A stretch of 35,719 nt of DNA from a virus, in the UHGV virus genome UHGV-0071189; one strand, written 5' to 3'. Position 1 is the first letter of the stretch; each line of letters opens with the position of its first letter. A program made the position numbers and the translations under genes. This document shows, piece by piece, positions 2,400 through 35,689 of the stretch. The notes under the pieces are model-generated. The model saw only the letters and a program-made list of their open reading frames with translations. It was not told where the DNA came from and searched no databases.

Positions 2400-3509
2400 T
2401 CACGCTGTTTCTGCTATCCATTCCGGGATTTTTGCCTCAAGCTCAAGCTGCGTGGTAAAGCCGCTGTTATCAATGGTGTGCTCGGCTTTTGCAATAATCC
2501 AGTCCTGATTGTCGATGTCACTTTTGAAGCCTGTCACCGTGCCATGCATTTCGGGATAGAGTTCTGCACGTCCACGCGCCAGCGTGATGGAGAATGATGC
2601 GGCTCCGCGTTGTAGTTGCTGCCACTTTGCCGCCGCTGCGCGTCTTGCTGCCTGCTCGTTCTGATAAGTCTTGCGTAACACAAACACATTGCCTTCCGCG
2701 CCTTCCATATAATCACCTTCACGGCTGCTGCTTTTCTCCTTTTTGGGTTTTGGCGGTTTACGGCGTTTCACGCTGACTTTTTTCTTTTTCCCGTAATTAA
2801 GATCAAGCCAGTAGGCGCGTACCCCCGTATACGCCTCGCGGTCAGCAATACGGAACTGATGGCGATCGCCGCTGCTGCGTGTAATGGCGAACGAGGGCAA
2901 CGGCTGGCCCTGTGCGTTCACGCCACCACCTGGCATGATGAATAACAGATTGCCGCTTTTTACCGTGGTGATTGCGCCCAGCATTTCCGCCATGCGCGTA
3001 AGGAAGGACATATCGCTTTCTTCGGTCTGGTCGGCGTGGTCGATTTCGATATCCATCAGCATTTCGCTGATTTGCGGTTTCAGACCATACCGATGAGCGA
3101 TGGCGGATACCACACGCTCAACGGTCACATCATGCCAGGACACCTCACGTTTAACGTTAAATTCATCCCGAAAATCTGCGCTTCTGGCTGAAACAGTCAG
3201 CCTGTCCGGCGGTCCTTCGTGAGCGATTTCATCAACAATGTAAGTGCCTTTTTCTGTCAGCGGTTCTCCTTTCCAGCCAATGAGAACCGTCAGGCGCGCG
3301 CCCCGTGGCGGTAGCTGCAACTGACCATCCGCATCATCCAGCGTGATGGTGAGCTGGTCCGCCTCAAATCCCCGGTTGTCGGTCAGTGACAGGCTCATCA
3401 GGCGCTCTGCCACGCCTGACAGCGTTTTACCCTCCGCGAGAATATCAAAATCCGGCATTTTCACGGGGTCTGTGCCCTGACTGAGCAATTGCATGGTGCT
3501 GTCGGTCAT
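2400..3509 (-). CDS. D: Tail protein D (gpD, late control/tail hub protein)
   Basis: LSLTDNRGFEADQLTITLDDADGQL matches P2 gpD family; start taken at internal ATG 3509 with GGGAGGGA RBS (ORF track extends to 3641). Confidence 0.8.
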   Translation of the reverse strand: MTDSTMQLLSQGTDPVKMPDFDILAEGKTLSGVAERLMSLSLTDNRGFEADQLTITLDDADGQLQLPPRGARLTVLIGWKGEPLTEKGTYIVDEIAHEGPPDRLTVSARSADFRDEFNVKREVSWHDVTVERVVSAIAHRYGLKPQISEMLMDIEIDHADQTEESDMSFLTRMAEMLGAITTVKSGNLLFIMPGGGVNAQGQPLPSFAITRSSGDRHQFRIADREAYTGVRAYWLDLNYGKKKKVSVKRRKPPKPKKEKSSSREGDYMEGAEGNVFVLRKTYQNEQAARRAAAAKWQQLQRGAASFSITLARGRAELYPEMHGTVTGFKSDIDNQDWIIAKAEHTIDNSGFTTQLELEAKIPEWIAETA

Positions 3510-3666
3510 CTGTTCCCTCCCTGTGCGGCATGGTCGCATGTGCGTGCGGAGGGGGTTACTGCTTTTTGTTGTCGCCGTGGCGGGAGAACGTCGCAGGGGT
3601 GAGATTACGCGCGTGGTGGGTGATGATTGTTGCCGAATCATTTAACGGATACAAGGGGCTGAAGCT

Positions 3667-4851
3667 ATGAGTGAAACTCGTTTTCATGGTGCCCGTGTTA
3701 CGGAAAATACCGACCTGGTAACAGCGATTAACGATGTTGATTCCAGTGTTATCGGTATCGTGGCAACGGCGGATGATGCGGACGCGAAGCTGTTCCCGCT
3801 GAACAAGCCCACACTGCTGACCCGCGTCAATGACGTGCTGGGAAAATGCGGGACAACGGGGACGCTTTATCGTGCGCTTAAGGCCATTGCAGACCAGGTG
3901 AGCACAAAGGTGATCGTCGTTCGCGTGGCTGAACACAAAGAAGAAGACGGAAAGACGCAGGATCAACTGGTTATCGGTGGTTCTGAGGATGACGGCAGCT
4001 ATACGGGGATGTATGCGCTGCTTGTTGCAGAGCAGGATGAAAGCATCGGATACCGTCCGCGTATTCTGGCCGCGCCGGAGCTGGACACGGAGGCTGTAAC
4101 AAAATCCCTGTGCGTGATTGCAGGTAAACTGCGCGCGTTTGTGTATGCCTCATGTTACGGCTGTAACACGATGGCTGAGGCGATTACCTACCGCCAGAAA
4201 TTCAACGAACGTGAGGTGATGCTCTTATGGCCGGACTTCATCGCCTACAACCCGAAAAGTGGCAAAAACGAAACGTTCCCCGCGCCTGCCTATGCGTGCG
4301 GCCTTCGTGCGTACATTGACCATGAGCAGGGATGGCACAAATCATTGTCCAACGTTCCGGTTAAAAATGTGCTGGGGATGTCGAGGCATGTGTTCTGGTC
4401 GTTGCAGGCCGAAGACAGCGATGCCAACAGCCTCAACAACAAAGAAATCACGACCATTATTCGTCGCAACGGGTTCCGCTTCTGGGGCAACCGCACACCG
4501 GAAACGAACGCCTACATCTTTGAGGTGTATACCCGAACCGCACAGGTGCTGGCTGATTCAATTGCGGAAGCGCAGTTTGAAACCATCGACAGTCCACTGA
4601 CGCCTGCGAATGTGAAGGATGTTATCAGTGCCATCAGGGCAAAACTGGATTCGCTGGTTACTGCCGGGAAACTGATTGGTGCGGAGTGCTGGTATGACGT
4701 GGTGGATAACGGCACCACGAATTTACGTCAGGGACGTGTGCGTATTCGCTACAAATATACGCCTGTTCCCCCGCTGGAAGACATGGAGCTTTACCAGACG
4801 TTTACTGATGAATTCTTTGGTCCCGCATTTGCGGTGCTGGGAGGTGCCTGA
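3667..4851 (+). CDS. FI: Tail sheath protein FI
   Basis: FPLNKP, EQGWHKSLSNV, RRNGFRFWGNRT, YTPVPPLE motifs match P2 gpFI; 394 aa. Confidence 0.9.
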   Translation: MSETRFHGARVTENTDLVTAINDVDSSVIGIVATADDADAKLFPLNKPTLLTRVNDVLGKCGTTGTLYRALKAIADQVSTKVIVVRVAEHKEEDGKTQDQLVIGGSEDDGSYTGMYALLVAEQDESIGYRPRILAAPELDTEAVTKSLCVIAGKLRAFVYASCYGCNTMAEAITYRQKFNEREVMLLWPDFIAYNPKSGKNETFPAPAYACGLRAYIDHEQGWHKSLSNVPVKNVLGMSRHVFWSLQAEDSDANSLNNKEITTIIRRNGFRFWGNRTPETNAYIFEVYTRTAQVLADSIAEAQFETIDSPLTPANVKDVISAIRAKLDSLVTAGKLIGAECWYDVVDNGTTNLRQGRVRIRYKYTPVPPLEDMELYQTFTDEFFGPAFAVLGGA

Positions 4852-5363
4852 TGGCTGTACCAAAACATCTTCGCTTTTTTACGTTGTTTGTGGATGGTGA
4901 AAACGAAGTGGGTAAAGTGACATCCGTCACGCCGCCCAAACTGACGCGCAAAACCGACAGCTATCGTGGTGGTGGCATGATGGGGGCGGTAAGTATTGAT
5001 CTCGGTCTGGACGACTCCGCGCTTGATGCGAGTTTTGTCATGGGGGGAGCTGTTCGTGCGCTGTTCCTTAAATATGGCGGCACGATTGACGGCACGCTGC
5101 TGCGTTTTGCGGGTGAATACTACACCGATGCAGAAAGCGATCTGTATGAAATCGAGATGCGTGGGCGTGTGACGGAAATTGATATGGGGGAAGCCAAACA
5201 GGGCGAAGCCACATCACACACTTACGCTGTCAAAAACACCTACTACAAGCTGAGCGTTAACGATCGCCCGCTGTGGGAAATCGACCTGTTGAACCACATC
5301 TACCGGAAGGACGGCAAGGACATTGTGCCTGACCGTATCCGTTCCGCGCTTGGGCTTGGCTGA
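4851..5363 (+). CDS. FII: Tail tube protein FII
   Basis: 170 aa immediately after sheath gene (ATGA-type coupling), size and position of P2 gpFII. Confidence 0.8.
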   Translation: MAVPKHLRFFTLFVDGENEVGKVTSVTPPKLTRKTDSYRGGGMMGAVSIDLGLDDSALDASFVMGGAVRALFLKYGGTIDGTLLRFAGEYYTDAESDLYEIEMRGRVTEIDMGEAKQGEATSHTYAVKNTYYKLSVNDRPLWEIDLLNHIYRKDGKDIVPDRIRSALGLG

Positions 5364-5418
5364 TAAGTAATATGCAGGCTGCGCAGTGCGTCGCCTCTGA
5401 CTGAAAAGGAGACAACTG

Positions 5419-5793
5419 ATGAAAGACATCGATACTGAAACCCGGAATAACACCGTGGCGGATGATGTGACGGCAGGTGAGGATATGACTGTCGAACGTG
5501 GCGTAAAACTGACCCGACCAATTGAGCGTGGTGGCGAAAAAATCACGTATGTGGAGATCACCGGGGCTATTGAGCAGGCTGGATCCCTGCGTGGTCTGTC
5601 GCTGTCTGATGTGCTGAATCTGAAAGCGGATACCATGTTCACGCTGTTGCCTCGCGTGACCTCGCCACGACTGGATGAAGTGATGATTAAAAAAATGTCG
5701 TCACGCGATTTTATTCAGTTGTGCGCTGTGGCTGTAAATTTTATGAGCGAGCCAGACTCTGGCGCGAAGAGCGTGCAGGAGACGGCAGCGTAA
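5419..5793 (+). CDS. E: Tail assembly chaperone E (zero-frame product)
   Basis: GSLRGLSLSDV...LPRVTSP resembles P2 gpE; precedes tape measure gene. Confidence 0.7.
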   Translation: MKDIDTETRNNTVADDVTAGEDMTVERGVKLTRPIERGGEKITYVEITGAIEQAGSLRGLSLSDVLNLKADTMFTLLPRVTSPRLDEVMIKKMSSRDFIQLCAVAVNFMSEPDSGAKSVQETAA

Positions 5794-5957
5794 TCACCCT
5801 GGTGTGCTTTGAGCACATCGAAGATCTGGTGGCGGATATTGCCGCCATTTTTAACTGGTCGCCCGCCGAAATCTTCATGATGACGCCCGGCGAAGTGGTT
5901 AGCTGGCGTGAGCGGGCGGCACTTCGCAGCGGGAATGCAGACAATGAAGACTCTTGA
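5419..5957 (+). CDS. Tail assembly chaperone E+E' made by programmed -1 frameshift (slip at A7 5689..5695 or AAATTTT 5736..5742)
   Basis: -1 frame is open from 5691 and encodes conserved E' C-terminus (VCFEHIEDLV...WRERAALRSGN); two slippery heptamers in the overlap. Confidence 0.55.
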
Positions 5958-8751
5958 CATCCGGGTCGCTTTCAGCGCCGTTGACAGGCTGACCCGGCCT
6001 GCCGAAAACGCCCGCCGCCTGATGGGGCAGTTTGGTGACTCCATCCAGCGAACGCAGGGGGCGATCAAAAATCTCGAGCGTCAGGCGCGTTCATTTGAGC
6101 GCGCCCGTGACGCTGTCAGTAAAGCGGATGCTGGCATATTGAAAGCACGACGCCAGCTTAACGCCCTTAATCAGTTACAACGCACGGGTACAGTGCTCAG
6201 CGAAAAACAACAAAAGCTGATGCAGCAGTTAAGCACCCGGCTTGAACGCCTGAATGAATCGCGCACACGGGAAATTCAGAAAATGCGGGAACTTGGCGGA
6301 GAGCTGAAACGCCACGGCATTTCCCTGACAGGCAGCGATAACACCATCCAGCAGGCCATCAGACGCACCGAACAGTACAACAACCAGCTTGAACGCGAAC
6401 GGCAGGCGCTTGCGCGTGTAACGCGGGCGCGTGAGCGGTATTCGCGCGCGCAGGAAACAGCGGGAAAACTGAAAACAGGTGGTGCGCTGGCAATTGGTGC
6501 GGCAGCGGCGGGCGGCTATGCTGCCGGGCGTTTTTTGCAGCCTGCGATCGGGTTCGGCAAAGAGATGTCCCGCGTTCAGGCACTGACGCGAATCGACAAA
6601 AACAGCCCGCAGTTTAAGGCGCTGCGTGAGCAGGCGTTAAAACTTGGCTCTGAAACACAGTTTACTGCGAGTGATGCCGCCAGTGGGCAGAGCTTTCTGG
6701 CAATGGCTGGGTTTACTCCGCAGGCCATTCAGGCCGCATTGCCCGGTGTTCTTAATATGGCGCTGGCAGGTGGCGTCGAACTCGGCGAGACGGCTGATAT
6801 AGGCTCCAATATCCTCACACAGTTCAACCTGACAGCCGATCAAATGGACCGGGTTGGCGATACGCTGACAGCAGCATTCACCCGGACCAATACTGATTTA
6901 CGCGCGCTGGGCGAAACCATGAAGTATACCGGTCCGGTTGCCGCAAAACTTGGTATCAGTCTTGAAGAAGCGGCGGCCATGGCCGGGATGCTTGCCAATA
7001 ATGGTCTTCGCGGAAGCGATGCTGGTACGGCCATGCGCGCAAGTCTGTCCCGCCTTGCATCACCGCCAAAAGCTGCGGCTGATGCACTGAAAGAGCTGGG
7101 GGTGTCAGTTGCTGACGCCAGAGGCAAAATGCGCCCGATGGAGAATGTGCTGCTTGATCTCTATAAGGCGACACAAAAATACGGACAGGTGGACCAGGTC
7201 TCCTTCTTCAAGGACATCGCCGGAGAAGAGGCGTTCGTTGGTTTGCAGACGCTTGTTGCGGCGGCTGGTTCAGGAGAACTGCAAAAACTGACCAGAGAAT
7301 TGCAGGGGGCAAGGGGAGAGGCCGATCGCGTTGCAAAAGTAATGGCCGATAATCTTGATGGGGACCTGAAAAATCTCGACAGCGCATGGGAAGGTCTTCG
7401 TATTCGCATCAGTGATCTGGTTGACGGTCCGCTGCGTTCTGTCACGCAGTGGCTCACGCGGGTGCTTGAAAAAATCACCTCGCTGGCGCAGGCCCATCCG
7501 GTACTGACGCGCCAGCTACTGATAGCAGGCAGTGCGTTGCTGGCAATGACTGCAACGATTGGCTCGTTGTCGCTGGTTATTGGGGTGCTTTACGGGAAGC
7601 TGGCCACCCTGCGTCTTGGTTTCGACATTCTTACCCGGTCAATGAATGTCATCAGGGTGTTGCCTGCGCTGTGGGGAATGGTGACGGGTTCTGTTTCTTT
7701 GCTGGGAGGCGCTATCGGGGCGCTGTTCAGTCCGGTTGGTCTTATCGTGGCTGCGCTTGCCGGAGCTGCCGTTCTTATCTGGAAATACTGGGATCCCATC
7801 AGGGTATTTTTTGCCGGGGTGTTCAGCGGGATTATGGAAAGGCTGACCCCGTTGCGCGAAACCTTTGAACGGTTTGGTCCTGTTTTTGACGCAATCGGAA
7901 GCGGGATCAGCCAGGTGTTTAACTGGTTTAAATCGCTGCTGTCACCGATGGAGTCCAGCAAGGAAACGCTGGATAAATGTACCAGTGCTGGCGAGATATT
8001 CGGTAACGTTCTTGGCGGTGCGTTACAACTTGTTCTGACACCTGCAAAAATGCTACTGGATACGCTGGCGTGGATACTTGAAAAACTCGGTGTCCTTCCG
8101 GATGAAGCGGAAAGGGCGCGCAAGAAAATCGAAGACGCACAGCGTGCGGCCATTCTTCAGGACAAGGTTGCCTTGCTTCAGGGGGACCTGGCGAAAATCA
8201 ATCCGCCGAAGCCTGTGGAAAATGGCAATGGCACCGGAGGTGATAAACCCAAAGACAACAAACCGCTCACAGACAGCAATACCGGGACGCTACGCAGACT
8301 CAGCAAAATTGCTGATAACACAGGTAAGCTGGTTGATGAGACGAAAAAACGCATTGGCCCCGGCGATATTGTCTTTAAGAACCTGCCCCGCGCACTTGCT
8401 GTTCGTGGGGAGTGGCAGGAGCGGAAGATTGCGCAGGTCAGTAAGCCTGCCCCCGCAATTAATATCACACCCGTGGTCCCGGCTCCGCTGCTTCCGGCGC
8501 TGGTCCCTGTTGTTGCGGCCAGCTCCCGCCCGGTGGCGGAGGCCATACGATCGCCAGTGGCATCAGTTCCTGTAACTTCCCGTAACCGGGAGCCTGTTGC
8601 CTCCGGATTTGGTGGTGAAATTCATGTTCATCTGCATAACGTTGTTACGCAGAATCCCCGCGAACTGGCGAAACTGGTCGGTGAAATGGTCAGGGCAGAA
8701 ATGGAACGGCGCGCCCGTGCCGGGCGTGGCAGTTTTTACGATAAAGATTGA
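5908..8751 (+). CDS. T: Tail tape measure protein T
   Basis: 947-aa protein with coiled-coil N-terminus and Gly/Ala-rich hydrophobic central region, directly after E/E'; GTG start in track, true start may be ATG at 5935 or 5944. Confidence 0.85.
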   Translation: MSGRHFAAGMQTMKTLDIRVAFSAVDRLTRPAENARRLMGQFGDSIQRTQGAIKNLERQARSFERARDAVSKADAGILKARRQLNALNQLQRTGTVLSEKQQKLMQQLSTRLERLNESRTREIQKMRELGGELKRHGISLTGSDNTIQQAIRRTEQYNNQLERERQALARVTRARERYSRAQETAGKLKTGGALAIGAAAAGGYAAGRFLQPAIGFGKEMSRVQALTRIDKNSPQFKALREQALKLGSETQFTASDAASGQSFLAMAGFTPQAIQAALPGVLNMALAGGVELGETADIGSNILTQFNLTADQMDRVGDTLTAAFTRTNTDLRALGETMKYTGPVAAKLGISLEEAAAMAGMLANNGLRGSDAGTAMRASLSRLASPPKAAADALKELGVSVADARGKMRPMENVLLDLYKATQKYGQVDQVSFFKDIAGEEAFVGLQTLVAAAGSGELQKLTRELQGARGEADRVAKVMADNLDGDLKNLDSAWEGLRIRISDLVDGPLRSVTQWLTRVLEKITSLAQAHPVLTRQLLIAGSALLAMTATIGSLSLVIGVLYGKLATLRLGFDILTRSMNVIRVLPALWGMVTGSVSLLGGAIGALFSPVGLIVAALAGAAVLIWKYWDPIRVFFAGVFSGIMERLTPLRETFERFGPVFDAIGSGISQVFNWFKSLLSPMESSKETLDKCTSAGEIFGNVLGGALQLVLTPAKMLLDTLAWILEKLGVLPDEAERARKKIEDAQRAAILQDKVALLQGDLAKINPPKPVENGNGTGGDKPKDNKPLTDSNTGTLRRLSKIADNTGKLVDETKKRIGPGDIVFKNLPRALAVRGEWQERKIAQVSKPAPAINITPVVPAPLLPALVPVVAASSRPVAEAIRSPVASVPVTSRNREPVASGFGGEIHVHLHNVVTQNPRELAKLVGEMVRAEMERRARAGRGSFYDKD

Positions 8752-8757
8752 GGAGTC

Positions 8758-9252
8758 ATGGCTATGATGATGATCTACGGCATGTTTGTTTTTGAGCTGC
8801 GCACGCTGCCGCATCAGCAGTTACAGCAAAACAAAAGCTGGCGGCATGTAAAAAATGAACGCGTTAACCGTTCAGCAAGCTGGCAGTATATCGGTGCAGG
8901 TGATGATCGCATCGTTCTTTCTGGTGTGCTTTATCCTGAAATTACAGGTGGCGAAGTGTCGCTGTCGCTGCTGACCACGCAGGCGTATACAGGACGACCC
9001 TGGCCTTTGATTGATGGTGTCGGGCAGATTTACGGCATGTATGTCCTGACCGGAACGAATACGACCCGTTCCGAGTTTGATCGCTACGGTAAGGCGAAAA
9101 AGATAGAATTTTCACTGACTCTTGAACGCTGTGATGAGGATTTGCGGGAGCGCCTGCAATCCTCATCGTTCAGTGATATGCTGTCCGGCTTCAAAGATAA
9201 GGTGACATCATCTCTTAACAGCGCGGCCAGTTCAGTTAAAGGGCTGTTCTGA
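8758..9252 (+). CDS. U: Tail protein U
   Basis: N-terminus MMMIYGMFVFELRTLPHQQLQ...WRH...VLYPEITGG matches P2 gpU; GAGGAG RBS. Confidence 0.8.
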   Translation: MAMMMIYGMFVFELRTLPHQQLQQNKSWRHVKNERVNRSASWQYIGAGDDRIVLSGVLYPEITGGEVSLSLLTTQAYTGRPWPLIDGVGQIYGMYVLTGTNTTRSEFDRYGKAKKIEFSLTLERCDEDLRERLQSSSFSDMLSGFKDKVTSSLNSAASSVKGLF

Positions 9253-9261
9253 TTTAACACA

Positions 9262-9291
9262 AAAACCGCTAATGGTCAGATTAGCGGTTTT
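9262..9291. terminator. Bidirectional terminator: perfect 12-bp stem AAAACCGCTAAT/ATTAGCGGTTTT, loop GGTCAG, between convergent U and invertase
   Basis: Seen directly; flanked by A-run and T-run; right arm overlaps the invertase stop codon. Confidence 0.6.
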
Positions 9292-9880
9292 CATTTTCCT
9301 GAGTCTGCCCGGTTGTTTCTTCAGTCTGTATATCGCCTACAGGGTGATAACGATAAATCGTCGATGTGCCAATGCCGTAAATTATTGCCAGTTGTTTTCT
9401 GTCGTGCCCGTTTTTGATTAGCCTTGCTATTTGCTCATGCTGTTCTTTTGTCAGCTTCGGTCGACGTCCGCCTGTGCGCCCCCTTGCGCGCGCTGCCGCC
9501 AGCCCGGCCAGTGTACGTTCAACAATTAATTCACGTTCCATTTCAGCCAGGGCACCCATCACGTGGAAGAAAAAACGCCCCATTGGAGAAGATGTGTCTA
9601 TGCTGTCGGTCAGACTGCGAAAATTAATCCCTCGCTCCCGTAGTTCCCCGACGAGAGAAATCAGATGTTTCATGCTTCGCCCGAGGCGATCCAGTTTCCA
9701 GACAACCAGCGTGTCACCTTTTTGAAGGCGCTTTAAAGCGCGTTTTAATCCCGGTCGGTCTGTCTTTGTCCCGCTTAATTTATCTTCAAATATTTGTTCA
9801 CATCCTGCACAAACAAGAGCGTTTCGTTGCAGGTCTGTATTCTGGTCATTTGTTGATACCCTTACATAGCCAATCAGCAC
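9281..9880 (-). CDS. Site-specific DNA invertase, serine recombinase of the Gin/Hin/Cin/Pin family
   Basis: LIGYVRVSTNDQ catalytic-serine motif, resolvase core and C-terminal HTH (GTSTIYRY); start taken at GTG 9880 with GGGAGA RBS (track start TTG 9898). Confidence 0.85.
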   Translation of the reverse strand: MLIGYVRVSTNDQNTDLQRNALVCAGCEQIFEDKLSGTKTDRPGLKRALKRLQKGDTLVVWKLDRLGRSMKHLISLVGELRERGINFRSLTDSIDTSSPMGRFFFHVMGALAEMERELIVERTLAGLAAARARGRTGGRRPKLTKEQHEQIARLIKNGHDRKQLAIIYGIGTSTIYRYHPVGDIQTEETTGQTQENENR

Positions 9881-9934
9881 ACTGAATCTCCCGTCCAAAA
9901 GCGCAAATCATGCCATGCAGGCCAGAAACGGCCA

Positions 9935-9960: not shown

Positions 9961-10656
9961 CTCGGCACAAGCGGGGAGAAAATACCGTTACTCAGTACAG
10001 CGAATACCTGGACTAATCGACAAACATTCAGCGGTGGCCTTTCTGGGGAACTGTCCGGCAATGCCGCTACTGCAACAAAGTTGAAAACAGCACGAAAAAT
10101 TGCTGGAGTTGGTTTTGATGGTTCTAGCGATATTTCAATTAGTGCCAAAAATGTCAATGCATTTGCACTCCGACAAACAGGTAATACTGTTAATGGTGAT
10201 ACATCCGTTGGATGGAATTGGGATAGTGGTGCATATAACGCCCTGATTGGTGGTGCATCTGCATTAATTCTTCACTTTAATATAAATGCTGGTAGCTGTC
10301 CTGCCGTACAATTCCGTGTGAATTATAAAAATGGTGGCATTTCCTACAGGTCGGCTCGTGATGGTTATGGGTTTGAATTAGGTTGGTCAGATTTCTATAC
10401 CACGACACGAAAACCTTCAGCGGGAGATGTTGGTGCATATACGCAGGCAGAATGTAACTCAAGGTTTATTACAGGTATTCGCCTTGGCGGCCTGTCATCT
10501 GTTCAGACATGGAATGGTCCCGGCTGGTCTGACAGGTCAGGTTATGTCGTTACGGGTTCAGTTAACGGAAACCGTGATGAATTAATTGATACAACACAGG
10601 CAAGGCCAATTCAGTATTGCATTAATGGGACGTGGTATAACGCGGGGAGTATTTAA
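9949..10656 (+). CDS. Alternative tail-fibre C-terminal coding segment (Hv'), silent in this orientation; no start codon of its own
   Basis: Frame open from just inside the gix site (stop TAA at 9940..9942 lies outside); encodes fibre-like sequence ...NAATATKLKTARKIAGVGFDGSSDIS... Confidence 0.7.
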   Translation, partial: GLRELGTSGEKIPLLSTANTWTNRQTFSGGLSGELSGNAATATKLKTARKIAGVGFDGSSDISISAKNVNAFALRQTGNTVNGDTSVGWNWDSGAYNALIGGASALILHFNINAGSCPAVQFRVNYKNGGISYRSARDGYGFELGWSDFYTTTRKPSAGDVGAYTQAECNSRFITGIRLGGLSSVQTWNGPGWSDRSGYVVTGSVNGNRDELIDTTQARPIQYCINGTWYNAGSI

Positions 10657-10658
10657 CG

Positions 10659-11192
10659 ATGATGCACTTAAAAAACATTACTGCTGGCAACCCTAAAACA
10701 AAAGAGCAATACCAGCTAACAAGGCAATTTAACATCAAATGGCTTTATTCAGATGATGGAAAAAACTGGTATGAGGAACAAAAGAATTTCCAGCCAGACA
10801 CTTTGAAAATGGTCTATGACCATAACGGCGTTATTATTTGTATTGAAAAGGATGTTTCAGCAATTAATCCGGAAGGCGCAAGCGTCGTTGAATTACCTGA
10901 TATTACAGCAAATCGCCGGGCTGATATTTCGGGGAAATGGATGTTCAAAGATGGCGTAGTGATAAAGCGAACTTATACCGAGGAAGAGCAGAGGCAACAA
11001 GCGGAAAATGAAAAGCAAAGCCTGTTGCAACTTGTCAGGGATAAAACCCAGCTATGGGACTCACAGCTACGGCTGGGCATCATTTCCGACGAGAATAAAC
11101 AAAAATTAACCGAGTGGATGCTCTATGCGCAGAAAGTCGAATCTACAGACACCTCCAGCCTGCCAGTAACGTTTCCCGAACAACCAGAATGA
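10659..11192 (+). CDS. Alternative tail fibre assembly protein (Tfa'), paired with the silent fibre tip
   Basis: 177 aa, same family and about half identical to the expressed Tfa at 11221..11748 (shared [28 protein letters not shown]). Confidence 0.8.
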   Translation: MMHLKNITAGNPKTKEQYQLTRQFNIKWLYSDDGKNWYEEQKNFQPDTLKMVYDHNGVIICIEKDVSAINPEGASVVELPDITANRRADISGKWMFKDGVVIKRTYTEEEQRQQAENEKQSLLQLVRDKTQLWDSQLRLGIISDENKQKLTEWMLYAQKVESTDTSSLPVTFPEQPE

Positions 11193-11751: not shown

Positions 11752-13902
11752 TTACACCTGTGCGACGTTATACCATGTGCCATTGATGTATTTTTGTATT
11801 GGTCTGAAGATGGCTTCATCATCGCCATCTACTTCACCAATGATTCTTAATCCGGTAATTGCGTGTCCGGCTTTTTCATAACGACCACCACGCGCCATCA
11901 ATTGAACAACACGCGTACCCAGGCGAACATCTTTTACATAGCGTGAATCAAAATTCCCCCAGTTGCTGGGCTGTATCTGACCGTTAACAGAAAATATTAC
12001 CGAGTTATCTGTATTTCGCTGGCTATAGAAATGCCATCCTGCCTCATCGCCTAACTCTGCAACTACTGGACGGGTTGAAGCACCCCATAAATTAAACGTT
12101 GCATTCTTTGTGGAGGTGTTGGAGCTGGATAGCGAGAACTTTTTACTATCACCTGCCTGAATGTTTTTAAAAGCAATAGCAACTCCATTCTGAAAGCGGA
12201 ATACTCGCTGACTATTAGCGTAAACATCCAGAATACCATCACCATTCTGTTTGAATCCGGTGTCATTATCACCAAGAACAATAGAGCTACCACCTAACGC
12301 ATTCGTCGTACCAACTCCAAGACTGCCATTAATGACGGCATTTACCAGAATATTTAGTGCATCCCATTTCAGCGTCATCAGGTCTTTTGTTGTGGTGCTC
12401 TGGCGGCTTCTCCATTTGAAATATTCATTGCCGTTGTCGCCTGTTTCAAACCACATGTATGAATCAGTGTCACCATCAGCATCATTTTTAAATCCAATCT
12501 TCGCCCAGTCAGTATTTCGAATCCAGGCAAGGATTGAGTCATTTTCAAAAGTAAGCCCACCGGACAAGGTATCGCCATTTTTTTGCACGGCGTTACCAGC
12601 CCTGTTTACCGTTTCCTGTAAACCGAGGTATTCGATAACGGCGGCAACGGTCGATTTCGCAAGAATATCCCGCCCGACTTTTGTCAGAGTTGCCAGGCTG
12701 GCGACATCATTCCCCGTAAAATACGGAAACCTGTCTGCCGCAGTAGCAAGCCCGGCCAGCGCCGTCAGGGTGGCATCTTTCGGTTGCTTACCCGCAAGCG
12801 CGTTAGTCATGGTGGTCGCAAAATTCGGGTCGTTGCCCAACGCCGCAGCCAGCTCGTTCAGCGTGTTCAGTGCATCAGGTGACGAATCTACAAGGGCGGC
12901 AATCGCAGCCATAACGAAAGCCGTGCTTGCGATTTGGGTATTATTCGTTCCCTGTCGCGCAGTTGGTGTTGTTGGCGTTCCGGTCAGCGCCGGGCTGTTT
13001 AATGGGGCTTTCTTATTTGTTTCATCCATTACCGCCTTAACCGCTTTCGATGTCGCGGCCAATGTTTCAGACGAGCTGTTGGTGGCACTACTGAGCTGGA
13101 CAATCCCTTTTTGTGCTGTCGTGGCGTCCTGAGCGGTATATTTTGCGTTAGCAAGATCATACGCGGCCTTTACTGCTTTCGGCGTTGCAGCCTGCGTTTC
13201 AGACGTGCTGTTGGTGGCGCTACTGAGCTGGACAAGGCCTTTTCGCGTCGTGCTGGCATCCTGCGCAGTATATTTACCGTTAGCAAGATCATACGCGGCC
13301 TTAACCGCTTTCGGCGTTGCAGCCTGCGTTTCAGACACGCTGTTAGTGGCGCTACTGAGTTGAACAAAGCCTTTTGCGGTCAGCGAGGCGTCCGGGTGAC
13401 GTCGTGACTGTTCATGCTCTTTCAGTTTGTCATCCACGTAATCCACTGTGGCCATCACCATGGTGTTATCCACGGTAAGCGCCACGGTGGCAGTGCTGGA
13501 TACGGTCAGAATGGTGCGAAATGTTTGTGCACGACCGGACCCTTCGGCAACGGCTGGCTTGTAACTTTCGGCAGTATTGCCCACCGCGATTAAATCGCCG
13601 TGCTCATCAAATACACCAATTTCCCGGATCCAGAATCCGCCCGTTTCTGGAGGAATAACCAGCTCTGCAATAATGCGGTTCTGATGTGTTGCGTCCAGGA
13701 TGACGCGATTAACAGTGTGTCGCCACACCTCATGCACCAGACGGGTCTGCTTACTGTCAGGTGTGGGCAATGTACCGCCACCGTCGCCCACGGCCATATG
13801 AGTCAGGCGGACAGGCTTACCATCTGGCGCGGCTGCCTGCGCTAATTTTTTTGCACCCGTATCGGTGATAACGGTTTTAAATTTTCGTGTTGTGGTACTC
13901 AT
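11752..13902 (-). CDS. H: Tail fibre protein H (constant N-terminal part 13902..~12626 plus variable C-terminal part inside the invertible segment)
   Basis: 716 aa; conserved fibre N-terminus; three tandem 39-aa repeats; gix site at codons VIEYLG. Confidence 0.85.
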   Translation of the reverse strand: MSTTTRKFKTVITDTGAKKLAQAAAPDGKPVRLTHMAVGDGGGTLPTPDSKQTRLVHEVWRHTVNRVILDATHQNRIIAELVIPPETGGFWIREIGVFDEHGDLIAVGNTAESYKPAVAEGSGRAQTFRTILTVSSTATVALTVDNTMVMATVDYVDDKLKEHEQSRRHPDASLTAKGFVQLSSATNSVSETQAATPKAVKAAYDLANGKYTAQDASTTRKGLVQLSSATNSTSETQAATPKAVKAAYDLANAKYTAQDATTAQKGIVQLSSATNSSSETLAATSKAVKAVMDETNKKAPLNSPALTGTPTTPTARQGTNNTQIASTAFVMAAIAALVDSSPDALNTLNELAAALGNDPNFATTMTNALAGKQPKDATLTALAGLATAADRFPYFTGNDVASLATLTKVGRDILAKSTVAAVIEYLGLQETVNRAGNAVQKNGDTLSGGLTFENDSILAWIRNTDWAKIGFKNDADGDTDSYMWFETGDNGNEYFKWRSRQSTTTKDLMTLKWDALNILVNAVINGSLGVGTTNALGGSSIVLGDNDTGFKQNGDGILDVYANSQRVFRFQNGVAIAFKNIQAGDSKKFSLSSSNTSTKNATFNLWGASTRPVVAELGDEAGWHFYSQRNTDNSVIFSVNGQIQPSNWGNFDSRYVKDVRLGTRVVQLMARGGRYEKAGHAITGLRIIGEVDGDDEAIFRPIQKYINGTWYNVAQV
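12613..12638. repeat. gix/hix-like recombination site inside H (left boundary of invertible segment), TTCCTGTAAACCGAGGTATTCGATAA
   Basis: Inverted copy of the site at 9935..9960; identical central GTAAACCGAGGT. Confidence 0.75.
13039..13374 (-). repeat. Three tandem 117-bp (39-aa) repeats within H (KG.VQLSSATNS.SETQAATPKAVKAAYDLAN.KYTAQDA)
   Basis: Repeats read directly in the H translation; also produce the repetitive spurious antisense ORF 13111..13407. Confidence 0.75.
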
Positions 13903-25162: not shown

Positions 25163-25589
25163 ACTCTCCAGCTCCTGTATCAATCAGATAATTTCACGAC
25201 GTCTTCCAGCTTATCGCCATCATCGACGGTCAGGCTCTTACGCAATCCCACTGCGCTGACTGCATGTTCTCGCCGCCTCAGTGCGATTTTGACGGCCTTA
25301 TCTGCTACCCCATCAAATCAAAAGTCCTCACGTCTTTTTCATGCTCAGCGTGAGAAATACAGCCATTCTGTTGTGTCGCTGCGACATCGTTCAGGGGATG
25401 CTATTTACCCCCTGAAACGCGGGCTGTTCCCCCGTCACCTGCGCGCAGAAAAAACGCGTTTTTTTGTGCACGCACGGATCCTTGACGGATCCAGTCGCCA
25501 CGCGGGCCGGAAGGGCAAAAAGTCGTTCAAAAAAATTATGCAAATTTGTGCACTATTGTGCAGATGCTGCGGATTATCTCGAAGCCATA

Positions 25590-25617
25590 TTGTGTATTAG
25601 CAAGTGATATGTATACT
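25590..25617 (+). promoter_or_regulatory. Candidate sigma70 promoter of the cargo operon (-35 TTGTGT, 16-bp spacer, -10 TATACT)
   Basis: Hexamers read directly, about 40 bp upstream of GTG start at 25660; not verified. Confidence 0.3.
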
Positions 25618-25659
25618 TTGCAATGAAGTAGTATAGATGTTTGTTAAGTAAGGTGAATT

Positions 25660-27036
25660 GTGAAAAAAATAGATAAAAAGGATGCAAGAAAACGCTTTTT
25701 ACGTGGTTGGATTCGCTTTTTAAAAGGCGTTGAGAGAAAAAATAAAAGAAGAATTAAATATAAAGCCTATGAAAGGTTACATTTTTCTGACGAAGTAACA
25801 CCAGTGAAAAGTCAGGTGGCTACTTTTATTGAAAGTATTTCATCCGTAAAGAAATATGATACTGCAACTCTTCGTCGCAAAGAAGATAGAATAATAATAC
25901 CTAAATATTTCGATTTGTTTGATCATCCAGAAAAATCTCTTTTGTTTATTCATGGTGTAACTAGATTGATTGCCAGGGGTAAACGTAAATCATATTTGCT
26001 TGATTATACTAAAAATAAAAAGCATTGTTTAGGTGCGGAATGTCTCCTTGGTGTTGCACTGAGCTCAGCCAAACGTCACAATATAAATTTAAAAGATGCT
26101 CAAGTACAACTTAATGGCATTTATCCGAAGGATGAAAAATATTTAGAAATTATTCGTGACATCGGGTTGGTTAAAGAAATAAATAAAGTGACGCCAGGGA
26201 AGGTGCATGATGAAACAGAAAAATCGAAAAAAGATAACCCTAAGAAAAGAATATTCTCTGCTGATAGTATCGGCAAGGAAAATGCGTCTGCATTTGCACA
26301 AGATACCAAAAATAGAATGTCTGAGAAATTCACTAATTATATAAACGAGTGTCTAAGTGATCATCAATTAAAATTAGTTAGCAAGGCAGAAAACCATCTA
26401 ACATCTTGCATGGGCGAATTACTTGATAATGCAGAGAGACATTGTGGGCTTGAGCAGCGTCCGCGTTGGTATTTGAGGGGGTTTGTAAATAATGGCTTAA
26501 AACAGCCAACATGTGAAATAGCTGTTTTTAACTTTGGAAAAACTATTGATGAAACTTTTTCAGGACTTTCTTTAGAACATTATTCATATAACAATCACAT
26601 AATCCCTTATGTGGAAAAACACATAAATAAAAAAGGGATGTTTAGAGAAGGTTTGATTACAGTCGCTGCTTTGCAGGGGCGGGTTAGTTGTAAAAATGAA
26701 ACGGAGACAGATAGTTCTGGTACGGGAACCATTGAACTATTGAAGTTTTTCCAGGATATGCATGATAGTTTAAAAGAACTATCCAAAGAACTAAGTGGAA
26801 ACATCAGAATGTCTTTAATTTCTGGATGCACACATATAAACTTTGATGGTTCTTATAAGTTGAAAAAGCAAACGTTAGATAACCAAAGTGACAAATTCAC
26901 TTATCCATTTAATAATACAGGGCTTGAATCTGAACCAGATCGTACCTATCTTAAGTGTATGCAGAAAGCCCGTTTTCCGGGAGTTATGATTAATATACGT
27001 TTTCCTTTACCGGAAAATGCAACTCAAAGAACCTGA
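25660..27036 (+). CDS. Cargo operon gene 1: 458-aa Lys-rich protein with possible GHKL / anti-sigma-factor-kinase-like ATP-binding motifs
   Basis: GTG start with AAGGTG RBS; ELLDNAERH (N-box-like, about residue 253), NFGKT and SGTGT at G1/G2-like spacing; AT-rich; family assignment is motif-based only. Confidence 0.6.
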   Translation: MKKIDKKDARKRFLRGWIRFLKGVERKNKRRIKYKAYERLHFSDEVTPVKSQVATFIESISSVKKYDTATLRRKEDRIIIPKYFDLFDHPEKSLLFIHGVTRLIARGKRKSYLLDYTKNKKHCLGAECLLGVALSSAKRHNINLKDAQVQLNGIYPKDEKYLEIIRDIGLVKEINKVTPGKVHDETEKSKKDNPKKRIFSADSIGKENASAFAQDTKNRMSEKFTNYINECLSDHQLKLVSKAENHLTSCMGELLDNAERHCGLEQRPRWYLRGFVNNGLKQPTCEIAVFNFGKTIDETFSGLSLEHYSYNNHIIPYVEKHINKKGMFREGLITVAALQGRVSCKNETETDSSGTGTIELLKFFQDMHDSLKELSKELSGNIRMSLISGCTHINFDGSYKLKKQTLDNQSDKFTYPFNNTGLESEPDRTYLKCMQKARFPGVMINIRFPLPENATQRT

Positions 27037-27047
27037 GGAATAGGTAA

Positions 27048-27392
27048 ATGAAAATGGCAAATATTTATATAGATTTCAATAAATTAGTTAAAGATGGCGG
27101 CAAGAAATTATTTGCTGGGCGTGATAATGGTCGCAAGGCATATAGTTTCTTTGGCATAGATCGCTTTACTTTTGATAACAATGATAGGATTTTTCTATCA
27201 ATTCCGAATGGTGTGGTTGTGTCAAGCTCATACTTTTTGGGTATGCTAGAGAATATATTGCCTCTTTTTTCATCTCCGAATGAATTTTATAGCAGAACAT
27301 CTTTAGATGGAGTGAATTATAAAGAAGGAATGCTTTCTGAGCTGGATAGGGCTGTGAGAAGAGGATTACATCGAAATGTTCCGTTCTTCTGA
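27048..27392 (+). CDS. Cargo operon gene 2: 114-aa protein, possible STAS-like (anti-sigma-factor antagonist-like) domain
   Basis: GAGGA RBS overlapping gene 1 stop; RIFLSIPNGVVVSSSYFLGML resembles the DSSG.L phosphorylation loop of STAS proteins; speculative. Confidence 0.55.
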   Translation: MKMANIYIDFNKLVKDGGKKLFAGRDNGRKAYSFFGIDRFTFDNNDRIFLSIPNGVVVSSSYFLGMLENILPLFSSPNEFYSRTSLDGVNYKEGMLSELDRAVRRGLHRNVPFF

Positions 27393-28167
27393 TTTGTGCT
27401 CTGTTTTTAAAATGACAGCATTGCCTGTCATTTTTTTTGTTAATATATCCGCTTGCTCTGCGACATATCCAGAAAGAACCGCGTCTAACATGGATTCGCA
27501 AAATTCAGAGTCTCACGTAATAGAACCAAAGAGTGGAAACATTTTTAATGCTGATATATGCATTGGAAAAAATAGCGATCTAAAATTATGCAATAGTTAT
27601 GAAAGGAAGTTTACACCGCACCTTCTTTATGATAAACCTGATAATTATGTTCTGAATGGATATTACCCCTCAACCTCATCGGGGAATCTCTATAATATCG
27701 TTAGAGTTCCTGAATCAGGACCTGAATGGTACTCTATAGCAATTTCAATTATTGCGCTAATTGCATCTGTAGGAGTTCCTTTGTGGCAGCATTATAAAGG
27801 AAGAAATGAAGCTATAAACGAAGGGTATTGGTTACGAGAAGTTATTCTCCCTAAAATTAATGGATTAGCTTTTGAAGTTACGGAAGATTTTAAGGATGCG
27901 ATGGGGCTTCCCCCTGATGAATTTATATCATTACTAGATAGCCAACTATTTTCAAAGCTTGGGGAGTTAAGGGATTCATTATATCTATTTAAGGGTTTTT
28001 CTAAGTTGGAAAAAGATATTGAGTCACTTGATGGTATCTGTGATTTATTTGAGCAAAAGGTTTCTGATAATATTGATTCATCTATTGATACAAGGATTTC
28101 TGATGTATCAATCTTTCATGCTAGCTTAATAAGGGAGCTCATGAAAATGCATAGAAAAATAGGGTGA
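27376..28167 (+). CDS. Cargo operon gene 3: 263-aa predicted lipoprotein/membrane protein (candidate effector)
   Basis: N-terminal signal peptide with ISAC lipobox; internal hydrophobic helix WYSIAISIIALIASVGVPLW; overlaps gene 2 by 17 nt. Confidence 0.55.
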   Translation: MFRSSDLCSVFKMTALPVIFFVNISACSATYPERTASNMDSQNSESHVIEPKSGNIFNADICIGKNSDLKLCNSYERKFTPHLLYDKPDNYVLNGYYPSTSSGNLYNIVRVPESGPEWYSIAISIIALIASVGVPLWQHYKGRNEAINEGYWLREVILPKINGLAFEVTEDFKDAMGLPPDEFISLLDSQLFSKLGELRDSLYLFKGFSKLEKDIESLDGICDLFEQKVSDNIDSSIDTRISDVSIFHASLIRELMKMHRKIG

Positions 28168-33537: not shown

Positions 33538-33849
33538 ATGTCAAGTGGGTACGAAAAAAAACTGAAAGAGATACGGAAAAGTGAAGGGTTAACTCAAGCT
33601 GAGTTTGCTGATGTTACTGGGATAAATCTCGGAACTATAAAGAATTATGAGAGCGGTAAAAGAGAGGTTGGTTTAAGCGTTGTTGATCGCGTAATTAATT
33701 CTAAGGATTTCGAAAAATACACTATATGGCTTATGACGGGAAAAACAAATGAGGCTGCTGGGCAGATCAGTCCCTCTCTCTCCCCTGATGGGCCAGAAAA
33801 CACATCGTCTTCTCAAAAATCCCGCAAGACTGGTACACAGCCCGGCTAA
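33538..33849 (+). CDS. C: Immunity repressor C (XRE-family HTH)
   Basis: LTQAEFADVTGINLGTIKNYESG helix-turn-helix; 103 aa; upstream of int; GGAGA RBS. Confidence 0.8.
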   Translation: MSSGYEKKLKEIRKSEGLTQAEFADVTGINLGTIKNYESGKREVGLSVVDRVINSKDFEKYTIWLMTGKTNEAAGQISPSLSPDGPENTSSSQKSRKTGTQPG

Positions 33850-33898: not shown

Positions 33899-34870
33899 AT
33901 GAGCATAAAATCAATTCCGGGAGGGTATCTTCTTGACATGCGCCCTGAGGGGCGTAAAGGCAAACGCATCCGCAAAAAATTTAAAACGAAATCGGATGCA
34001 GTTTTATATGAGCGGTGGGTGTTGGCGCAACAGCATAACAATGAGTGGAAAGGAAACTCTATTGATCGCCGTCCTCTGTCAGTGCTTATTGACTTGTGGT
34101 GGAAATACCACGGCCAGCTAATGAAGTCAGGGCATAACACGCGCCTTAAATTGCTGCGCTTGAGTGAGGCAATGGATGACCCGTGCGTGCATAAACTTAA
34201 TACAACAATGCTCACCGAGCTACGTGTGTCCAGGATAGAGCAGGGGATACAGCCCAGCACCATAAATCGAGAGATTGGGGCGTTAAGCGCGATGTTTACC
34301 GCACTCATCTCATCCGGCCATTTTCTTAATGATAACCCCGTTCAAGGCCTTAAAGGAATGAAGGTTAACGAGCGTGAAATGGGATATCTGAGTAAGTCTG
34401 AATGTGTTCAGTTGCTGGATGCACTGGCTGAAAATCCCGATGAACGGCTGGCTGTCGAAATCCTTCTGTCGACCGGGGCGCGATGGGGCGAGGTAGCGGC
34501 ACTGGAGCAACGCCGCGTTCTGCATTGTCGAATCACTTTTTCAAAAACGAAGAACAGCAAAAACCGTACCGTTCCTATTTCTGAAAGCCTGTTTGAAAAG
34601 ATCAAAAAACGGGGCGGGAAACTGGTGTTTCCGACGCTGGATTATCCATTGGTTCGCGATGTCATCAAAACGGTCGCACCTGATGTTCCTGACGGCCAGG
34701 CTGTTCATGCGCTGCGCCACACCTTCGCCAGTCATTTCATGATGAACGGCGGCAATATTCTGACGCTCCAGAAAATTCTGGGGCACGCAAAGATTCAGAC
34801 AACGATGATTTATGCCCATCTTGCGCCGGATTACCTGCAGGATGCGGTGAGATTTAATCCAATAGCTTGA
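33899..34870 (+). CDS. int: Tyrosine integrase
   Basis: ARWGE...HALRHTFAS...LGHAKIQTTMIYAHL catalytic motifs; start placed at ATG 33899 downstream of C (track ORF starts 33749). Confidence 0.85.
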   Translation: MSIKSIPGGYLLDMRPEGRKGKRIRKKFKTKSDAVLYERWVLAQQHNNEWKGNSIDRRPLSVLIDLWWKYHGQLMKSGHNTRLKLLRLSEAMDDPCVHKLNTTMLTELRVSRIEQGIQPSTINREIGALSAMFTALISSGHFLNDNPVQGLKGMKVNEREMGYLSKSECVQLLDALAENPDERLAVEILLSTGARWGEVAALEQRRVLHCRITFSKTKNSKNRTVPISESLFEKIKKRGGKLVFPTLDYPLVRDVIKTVAPDVPDGQAVHALRHTFASHFMMNGGNILTLQKILGHAKIQTTMIYAHLAPDYLQDAVRFNPIA

Positions 34871-34880
34871 AGGTAGGAAA

Positions 34881-35264
34881 ATGAAAGATATTGAACATTC
34901 AGGGGACATGGAAAAGAAAAAACGGGAGTTTATTAAAAAACTGGAATCGATAACGCCAAGAGAATTCTTCCGTTTTTTAAATGAAAAAAACGTCACTGTG
35001 GTTTGCCCTGGGTGCGGGCTGAAAGATACCCAGATAACTGCCACTACAGGTAAGTTAAATCTCCAACAACTCCTGGATGGTGAAAAAGGGGAAGAGTTTA
35101 TGACGTACTTCAGGCTTGAACCAGGTCACCCAGGTGATAGTGATGCGAATTATTACTACAAATCTTTTTGTGAGAACTGTGGTTATATAACTATGCATGC
35201 AGTGACTCCGGTATTGAACTGGCTGGGATCGCAAAAAAACCAGGAAGGGTCAGGTGATGAATGA
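34881..35264 (+). CDS. Cargo protein, 127 aa, zinc-ribbon-like (CPGCG ... CENCG)
   Basis: Two CxxC pairs; AGGTAGGA RBS; sits between int and attR. Confidence 0.5.
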   Translation: MKDIEHSGDMEKKKREFIKKLESITPREFFRFLNEKNVTVVCPGCGLKDTQITATTGKLNLQQLLDGEKGEEFMTYFRLEPGHPGDSDANYYYKSFCENCGYITMHAVTPVLNWLGSQKNQEGSGDE

Positions 35265-35556
35265 GTATACTTATATCACGGGTTTTTCCATTCCGTATCC
35301 AGGAGGAATTCAGGTGAGCAATCGCAGAAGTCAGGCAAGTCGTGATGAGTTCGCTCTTGATAGCCGTGTTGCACGAATGGAGTCTGATATCTCATACATC
35401 AAGAGAGATATTGAAGAGCTGAAGAGCGATCTCAAGGATGTGAGAGGCGATATTGATAAGATACGCACAACAGATTTCAGGATCATGTTTGGTGCGTTGA
35501 TTACTACAGCCTTGGGGTTAGCTGGCTTAATGGCGAGAGGTTTTCACTGGATTTAA
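35254..35556 (+). CDS. Cargo protein, 100 aa, coiled-coil with C-terminal TM anchor (XhlA-like architecture)
   Basis: Heptad-like segment DISYIKRDIEELKSDLKDVRGDIDKI followed by hydrophobic FGALITTALGLAGLMA; overlaps upstream gene by 11 nt. Confidence 0.45.
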   Translation: MMNEYTYITGFSIPYPGGIQVSNRRSQASRDEFALDSRVARMESDISYIKRDIEELKSDLKDVRGDIDKIRTTDFRIMFGALITTALGLAGLMARGFHWI

Positions 35557-35664
35557 GATCCACAAAGTGACCACATCTCTGTTATTTGTTGTGGTTGGCT
35601 GTGTTTTTGTGTGTCTGTAAGCCTTTGATAATTATATAACTTATTGATTTTTGTTTGTGTTTAT

Positions 35665-35689
35665 GGCCGCTCTGCGGCCTTTTTTCTTT
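35665..35689. repeat. attR core: second copy of the 25-bp direct repeat
   Basis: Exact match to 31..55. Confidence 0.7.

Follow-up and report, generated by a model that had tools for sequence, protein, structure and literature searches.

A two-gene accessory cassette between the integrase gene and attR of a P2-like Escherichia coli prophage

The virus genome UHGV-0071189 was analysed as a single stretch of 35,719 nt, referred to here as the window, with attention to two small overlapping open reading frames (ORFs), ORF1 and ORF2, located near its right end between the integrase gene and the right attachment site. The window was found to be a complete P2-like Escherichia coli prophage, inserted in the terminator between ihfA and btuC. 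Reading directly off the sequence, the 3′ end of ihfA (...KDE stop) opens the window immediately 5′ of the attL core (31–55, + strand), and the window ends upstream of btuC, which directly follows the equivalent stretch in the closest genomes. The attL core is the ihfA transcription terminator hairpin, duplicated upon integration. Its 25 nt, GGCCGCTCTGCGGCCTTTTTTCTTT, recur as an exact direct repeat at 35665–35689 (+ strand), where the attR core again consists of a GC hairpin plus a T-run, in agreement with the attR placement in an initial annotation of the same DNA.

The right end of the prophage carries a series of four genes on the + strand. The first encodes a P2 C-type immunity repressor (33538–33849; Pfam HTH_3 2e-10, PHROG 147 1.3e-35), in the same position relative to the integrase gene int as the C gene of P2. 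It is followed by int itself, encoding a tyrosine integrase (33899–34870; Pfam Int_N 1.5e-28, Phage_integrase 7.8e-20; RefSeq start 33938), and then by ORF1 (34881–35264) and ORF2 (35257–35556), both co-oriented with int as initially described. Between the int stop and the ORF1 start lie 10 nt that contain the Shine-Dalgarno-like sequence AGGTAGGA, and ORF1 and ORF2 overlap by 8 nt (ATGAATGA), the ORF2 ATG overlapping the ORF1 stop. Downstream of C, int, ORF1 and ORF2, the + strand has no terminator-like site other than the hairpin of the att core. Because no such site occurs before it, a single C-int-ORF1-ORF2 transcript in the lysogen would be the simplest reading of this same-strand, closely spaced layout.

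Downstream of ORF2 lies a 108-nt attP arm (35557–35664, + strand) that includes a putative arm-type Int site, GTGACCACAT, at 35567–35576 (+ strand). The sole other match to the arm-type motif in the window is GTGTCCACAT at 103–112, beside attL; 0.11 matches are expected by chance, and both are plausible arm-type Int sites. Since the attP arm with its putative site lies downstream of ORF2, the pair is part of the phage genome and separates int from the arm. In P2 (NC_001895) the attP core was found approximately 79 nt from the int stop with no intervening gene, as had been stated in the initial annotation, and the 3′ end of int is overlapped by Cox and Int arm sites. The pair had also been described as richer in AT than the phage backbone, and this was borne out: the GC content of the two genes is 42.5 %, compared with 49.1 % in int, 53.7 % in the structural genes and 50.5 % over the window as a whole. 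An equally low value, 42.3 %, was obtained for the C repressor gene.

To survey this interval in related prophages, 5426 complete E. coli genomes were searched, with int counted at ≥95 % identity. The int gene was found in 299 of these genomes, with alignments ending at int positions 962–972, that is, at the stop codon. Beyond that point four alternative cassettes were distinguished. Cassette a, as in the window, comprises ORF1 and ORF2 and was present in 17 genomes; cassette b encodes one soluble 131-aa protein (158 genomes); cassette c encodes proteins of 120 and 145 aa (86 genomes); and cassette d encodes proteins of 166 and 145 aa, the second labelled ‘DUF1640’ in RefSeq (23 genomes in full, 39 with any match). 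As the four counts total approximately 300 against the 299 int genomes, the interval between int and attR is essentially never empty. In alignment the four variants are identical up to the last three codons of int and again from 1–3 nt past the stop of the second gene, through the arm and the core, the 108-nt arm being identical in all four. Such boundaries are the pattern expected from exchange by recombination in conserved flanks. The interval is always filled by one of four cassettes with the same boundaries, and the pair is therefore to be seen as an allele at a hypervariable locus and not as an insertion at a site that is normally vacant. Taken together, the identification of ORF1 and ORF2 as a two-gene accessory (moron) cassette in a P2-like prophage is well supported, and the earlier description of an accessory module stands.

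Three of the four cassettes follow one design, an ORF1-family zinc ribbon followed by a coiled-coil membrane protein anchored at its C-terminus. In cassettes c and d the first gene encodes an ORF1-family member; one of the two scores 63 bits against the family hidden Markov model (blastp to ORF1 7e-9) and the other 124 bits (5e-17). Their second genes encode coiled-coil proteins with a hydropathy maximum at the extreme C-terminus; these two proteins are mutually related (3.5e-15), but their similarity to ORF2 is faint. The 131-aa protein of cassette b, the commonest of the four (positions 2986–3381 of locus L107, in E. coli O104:H4 and 157 other genomes), had no match in Pfam or PADLOC and no homology to ORF1 or ORF2.

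ORF1 encodes a 127-aa acidic protein of an uncharacterized family, predicted to be a cytoplasmic zinc-ribbon protein. Its layout comprises an N-terminal helical hairpin, a four-cysteine ribbon and a C-terminal helix bearing an invariant tryptophan. The two CxxC pairs noted initially were located as CPGC at residues 42–45 and CENC at residues 97–100, and all four cysteines as well as Trp114 were invariant among 54 aligned homologues with identities down to ~20 %. The same alignment yielded two further conserved motifs, VTPxxFxxFLxxKGV and PVLxW. The protein has a calculated isoelectric point (pI) of 5.4 and no hydrophobic segment by hydropathy, and its structural model is that of a soluble zinc ribbon of the alpha/beta type. 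Close homologues (58–99 % identity) were found in Escherichia, Salmonella, Serratia, Raoultella and Aeromonas, and a profile search of 1.8 billion representative proteins gave 86 family members at E≤0.001. The one significant family match was to PHROG 4293 (1.6e-16), which is of unknown function. All matches to Pfam, NCBIfam and PADLOC were below threshold in scans of both proteins, including those of ORF1 to the zinc-ribbon families Zn_Ribbon_TF, YnfU and Lar (19.1, 19.8 and 15.1 bits relative to cut-offs of 29, 36 and 39.6), and profile searches of the PDB returned nothing specific and no solved fold. The earlier term ‘zinc ribbon-like’ therefore holds for the architecture of ORF1 and not for membership of any of these families.

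In the ORF2 product an N-terminal FSIPYPGG peptide is followed by a coiled coil and, at the C-terminus, by a transmembrane (TM) anchor, the hydropathy maximum lying at residues 74–92. The coiled coil and TM anchor had been recognized initially, in a 100-aa product starting at GTG 35254; this start was not upheld, and ATG 35257, giving 99 aa, is favoured by a Shine-Dalgarno-like GGAAGGG 7 nt upstream, by the RefSeq start and by conservation of the N-terminal residues in homologues. A further candidate, GTG 35314 (80 aa, preceded by an AGGAGG Shine-Dalgarno sequence and used in one NCBI record), was rejected as the main start because the 19 residues ahead of it hold a conserved aromatic-Pro-Gly-Gly motif; both ATG 35257 and GTG 35314 may be in use. 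The N-terminus GFSIPYPGG is also a degenerate form of the (D/R)FPxH-GGGG motif found in other partners of ORF1-type proteins, which supports the long form of ORF2.

A sequence search gave 37 clusters of the ORF2 family, and 80 loci were located in alpha-, beta- and gammaproteobacterial genomes. The family members share an invariant C-terminal part, DFRxxFGAxxxxxLGLAGxxAxGFxW, following a heptad-rich helix. ORF2 was initially likened to XhlA in architecture. Against Pfam XhlA (PF10779) it scored 18.2 bits (E 0.003, residues 36–88) without reaching the gathering cut-off of 34.7, and 14 of 26 family members matched the same profile at E≤0.01 (best 7.9e-7). The resemblance is distant and does not amount to membership. 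Profile searches of the PDB with ORF2 returned only generic coiled coils. Neither by profile nor by structure search, then, did the pair give more than sub-threshold matches or matches of unknown function, and neither protein was found to be a conserved P2-family gene product of known function.

The two genes also occur together well beyond E. coli. P2-like prophages of Serratia, Klebsiella and, at two different att sites, Raoultella have the order C-int-ORF1-ORF2-att. The Aeromonas prophage instead reads C, 267-aa gene, ORF1, ORF2, int and att, so that the pair appears to have moved within the same operon. The 267-aa gene of Aeromonas hydrophila, between repressor and pair (locus L005, 5188–5991), has a weak precomputed match to Flk_N that was not reproduced in a Pfam scan; Flk is a C-tail-anchored membrane protein. 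In Salmonella phage SPN3UB the pair corresponds to gp24/gp25, located in an accessory (moron) island that has the tail genes on one side and the tape measure gene on the other and adjoining Arc-like repressors and Ant immunity genes. Since ORF1 and ORF2 are conserved as an adjacent pair across genera, they are not chance reading frames.

Among 78 genome loci found via ORF2 in alpha-, beta- and gammaproteobacteria, the abutting upstream protein was ORF1-like or zinc-ribbon-like in 22, comprising 20 proteins with two CxxC pairs and 2 with a variant ribbon. Conversely, approximately 73 of 80 viral contigs found via an ORF1 subfamily had an abutting or overlapping downstream gene of 93–140 aa, with a partner layout of N-terminal (D/R)FPxH-GGGG motif, glycine-rich linker, coiled coil and C-terminal TM segment. 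Other contexts of ORF2 relatives were also seen. In Mu-like phages an ORF2 relative lies downstream of a repressor-like HTH gene and 1–2 genes upstream of a holin and SLT endolysin, and a further prophage carries one after an S24 repressor-like gene; in both contexts the upstream neighbour is a small helical protein and not a zinc ribbon. The Pfam neighbours around chromosomal copies were heterogeneous, with recurrent repressor, integrase and Ant matches as well as plain metabolic genes.

Comparison of the paired loci indicated modular evolution of the second gene. Over 33 distinct pairs, ORF1 identity was correlated with that of the partner’s N-terminal peptide at a Spearman value of 0.67 and with that of the coiled-coil/TM part at 0.27, values that derive from non-independent pairwise comparisons and are descriptive only. 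In the 18 locus pairs in which ORF1 was >80 % identical, the partner N-terminal peptides averaged 78 % identity and the remainders 45 %, and in 11 of these 18 pairs the remainder was <40 % identical. The partners had at least five TM tails unrelated to one another. As ORF1 tracks the N-terminal peptide while the tail varies, recombination breaks within the second gene, after the glycine linker. The N-terminal peptide of the partner is thus likely, on these patterns of identity, to be the element on which ORF1 docks.

Several further features of the prophage were recorded. Between attL and ogr lies a Hok/Gef-family type I toxin gene of 46 aa (315–455, - strand), matching Pfam HOK_GEF at 4e-7, above the cut-off; a Rfam scan of the window gave nothing at gathering score, including any Sok-type RNA. 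With this hok-like gene near attL and the pair near attR, small membrane-active cargo would be located at both att-proximal ends. A 389-aa DUF3800 protein is encoded at 1139–2308 (+ strand, 33 % GC), between ogr (646–906, - strand) and gpD (2400–3641, - strand); it looks like another cargo gene and had no PADLOC match. Four co-oriented ORFs of 103, 458, 114 and 263 aa (25289–28167, + strand, 36 % GC) between the portal and replication endonuclease genes occupy the classical P2 tin/old defence hotspot. They had no Pfam or PADLOC matches and may represent another uncharacterized system.

In the tail region, a serine invertase gene (Resolvase plus HTH_7; 9281–9898, - strand) adjoins an alternative tail-fibre C-terminal segment, which with its assembly gene (10081–11192, + strand) is oriented opposite to the G/H genes (- strand), and 40-nt inverted repeats occur at 10603–10642 and 11766–11805. 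This arrangement looks like an invertible host-range segment. The block of sheath, tube, E, tape measure and U genes (3667–9252) is on the + strand and gpD and the G/H...O genes on the - strand, an arrangement in which the FI-U block is inverted in situ when compared with the order of these genes in P2. A related prophage in strain F344 has the same tail block orientation relative to the G/H genes, so this orientation looks like a feature of the lineage. Three tandem 132-nt repeats, 76–82 % identical (13034–13393, - strand), are located inside a 716-aa tail-fibre ORF.

The reading of the pair that we tentatively put forward, as possible though short of probable, is that of a lysogen-expressed phage-exclusion or abortive-infection pair with a RexAB-like build. 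Under this model the two genes would be transcribed in the lysogen together with the C repressor and int, with translation of ORF2 coupled to that of ORF1 through the 8-nt overlap. ORF2 would be inserted in the inner membrane by its C-terminal helix, leaving the coiled coil in the cytoplasm, and the soluble, acidic ORF1 protein would dock on it, most likely at the short N-terminal aromatic/Pro-Gly peptide. The resulting complex at the cytoplasmic face of the membrane would then act as the exclusion device, in which ORF1, as sensor or adaptor, would sense or bind a product of the infecting phage and ORF2, as membrane effector or anchor and a distant XhlA relative, would either disturb the membrane, giving abortive infection, or block genome entry. 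The genes themselves, their pairing, the exchange of cassettes, the shuffling within the second gene and the location in the lysogeny unit are established by the analysis, and co-transcription, membrane topology, contact between the two proteins and the anti-phage role are all inferred here from sequence. An exclusion or abortive-infection role, which the initial annotation had also guessed at, fits the position in the repressor-integrase unit, the swapping of cassettes and the modular shuffling of the second gene.

A number of observations weigh against an anti-phage role. Neither protein showed homology to PADLOC-DB v2.0.0, the best match of ORF1 being PDC-M14A at E 0.01 over 17 residues and ORF2 having none; the sibling cassettes likewise gave only coiled-coil noise against PADLOC. 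Known defence genes were not enriched around the chromosomal copies in the neighbour check. In several Pseudomonas species the pair occupies one fixed chromosomal locus beside housekeeping oxidoreductases, which looks more like a cellular function than mobile defence. The co-inheritance of ORF1 with the partner’s N-terminal peptide could reflect simple physical linkage, the DNA being adjacent, and the variety of TM tails could mean that the membrane part is only an anchor and not the effector.

Among the alternatives, a toxin-antitoxin or addiction role, in which ORF2 would be a membrane-damaging toxin and ORF1 its protein antitoxin, stabilizing the prophage or locus without sensing phages, is considered unlikely. 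The arrangement of two small overlapping genes with a soluble acidic partner upstream is consistent with such a system, the ORF2 family has different small upstream partners in different lineages in the manner of toxins with varied antitoxins, stand-alone chromosomal copies of the pair exist, and the same prophage carries a hok-like toxin at its other end. However, no recognizable DNA-binding or antitoxin domain was found in ORF1 in Pfam or NCBIfam and no fold match was obtained, nor was there a match to a known toxin family. The exchange of unrelated TM types while ORF1 remains constant would also be odd for a specific toxin-antitoxin lock. The border between toxin-antitoxin and abortive-infection systems is in any case blurred, so that this explanation overlaps with the exclusion role proposed above.

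About equally improbable is a host-physiology role without any phage function, in which a tail-anchored coiled-coil protein of ElaB/YqjD-like architecture and its zinc-ribbon partner would alter lysogen physiology at the level of stress tolerance, the ribosome or the membrane. The C-tail-anchored architecture, the fixed locus beside metabolic genes in several Pseudomonas species and the lack of a link to known defence genes are consistent with this, whereas no sequence match to DUF883/ElaB-type families was found and the rapid replacement of cassettes together with domain shuffling is more typical of conflict genes.

Slightly less probable again is a lysis accessory role, in which ORF2 would be an XhlA-type partner of the phage’s own holin and ORF1 would regulate it, timing lysis after induction. 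The XhlA matches of more than half of the ORF2-family members examined point in this direction, as does the location of the Mu-like relatives near a holin and SLT endolysin, and XhlA is required together with the holin XhlB and the endolysin XlyA for PBSX lysis (PMC5589764). ORF2 itself, however, falls below the XhlA cut-off, no relatives other than the Mu-like ones adjoin a holin, and the pair lies in the repressor-integrase unit, approximately 16 kb from the P2-type lysis gene site and on the opposite strand, that site being taken from the collinear relative L106, in which alone a holin, an endolysin and a DUF2570 protein are annotated. Moreover, in more than half of the sibling prophages the unrelated single soluble 131-aa protein of cassette b replaces the pair, so that the cassette is dispensable for lysis.

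The suggestion that the zinc-ribbon protein ORF1 assists the neighbouring integrase, as a directionality or helper factor, which would account for its position directly downstream of int and for that of the cassette directly upstream of the attP arm, is very improbable given that the cassettes differ wholly while int, arm and core are identical, that cassette b has no ORF1-family gene, that the obligatory partner of ORF1 is a membrane protein, that the SPN3UB pair lies among tail genes far from int, and that the directionality factor of P2-type phages is annotated as Cox.

Should the pair indeed exclude phages, a compact (~680 bp) and very common two-gene system would be added to the defence repertoire. 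The three related cassettes and the one unrelated cassette would then form a natural allelic series in which the rest of the prophage is the same, so that determinants of specificity could be mapped in an unusually clean setting. New candidates from such hotspots are common, but the allelic series and the clear modularity make this one unusually tractable. The modular structure, in which ORF1 and the partner’s N-terminal peptide are kept and the coiled coil and TM segment exchanged, suggests natural recombination of sensor and effector. A broader proposal, which we regard as doubtful, is that the pair founds a widespread but so far unrecognized class of temperate-phage immunity modules, in which a zinc-ribbon sensor would dock on the partner’s N-terminal peptide, the coiled-coil/TM end would be freely exchanged, and homologous recombination at the P2 int-att junction would replace whole cassettes and so alter the specificity of exclusion. 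If the function is not defence, temperate phages throughout the Proteobacteria would still share in this pair a conserved module associated with the membrane, one that links tail-anchored proteins of the XhlA/DUF1640 type to a new family of zinc ribbons.

The location, as distinct from the gene pair, has been described previously. A recent study (PMC13586616) reported the int-att interval of P2-like prophages to be a minor hotspot for defence, with 3 % of the P2 systems, so its occupation by cargo is not new. In line with such hotspot cargo, the cassette lies between int and att with the attP arm kept, and the content varies between otherwise near-identical prophages; that study counts known defence systems, however, and the cassette in the window matches none of those. 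The pair itself is not described in the literature found. No paper was found on either RefSeq accession; searches combining XhlA with defence, DUF1640 with phage and zinc ribbon with superinfection exclusion returned nothing describing it, and no function for phage DUF1640 members; and a megablast search of the int-att region against GenBank phages gave one partial integrase match only.

At the level of the single proteins, ORF1 resembles the Lar restriction alleviation, YnfU and TFIIB-type ribbons in having a four-cysteine ribbon with two CxxC knuckles, but its matches to them are short, confined to a single knuckle and below cut-off, and its additional conserved helices (VTPxxFxxFL and PVLxW) are missing from those families. 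ORF2 shares with XhlA of the Bacillus prophage PBSX, the partner of the holin XhlB, an N-terminal coiled coil and a C-terminal TM segment, and the weak profile similarity extends across both parts. It differs in its location after int in a lysogeny unit, XhlA being a member of a lysis cassette, and in its pairing with a zinc-ribbon protein, a partner that XhlA does not have. A coiled coil with a C-terminal TM segment is likewise found in DUF1640/CCDC90-like proteins, consistent with the RefSeq annotation of the second gene of cassette d; that protein is nonetheless below the Pfam cut-off (26.5 relative to 33.5 bits), and ORF2 has no CCDC90-like match.

As a two-gene unit, the pair is most readily compared with RexA/RexB of phage lambda, gp43/gp44 of Gordonia phage CarolAnn and gp30/gp31 of mycobacteriophage Sbash, in each of which two prophage genes are expressed with the repressor. 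The Rex and Sbash systems pair one membrane protein with one cytoplasmic protein, and by hydropathy and pI ORF2 and ORF1 show the same combination of one membrane and one soluble protein. RexB is a polytopic channel-like protein, unlike ORF2 with its single C-terminal TM helix, and no similarity in sequence or fold was found between ORF1-ORF2 and the Rex, CarolAnn or Sbash proteins. For CarolAnn gp43/gp44, co-expressed with the repressor, an abortive-infection-like heterotypic defence against unrelated phages has been reported (PMC6426606).

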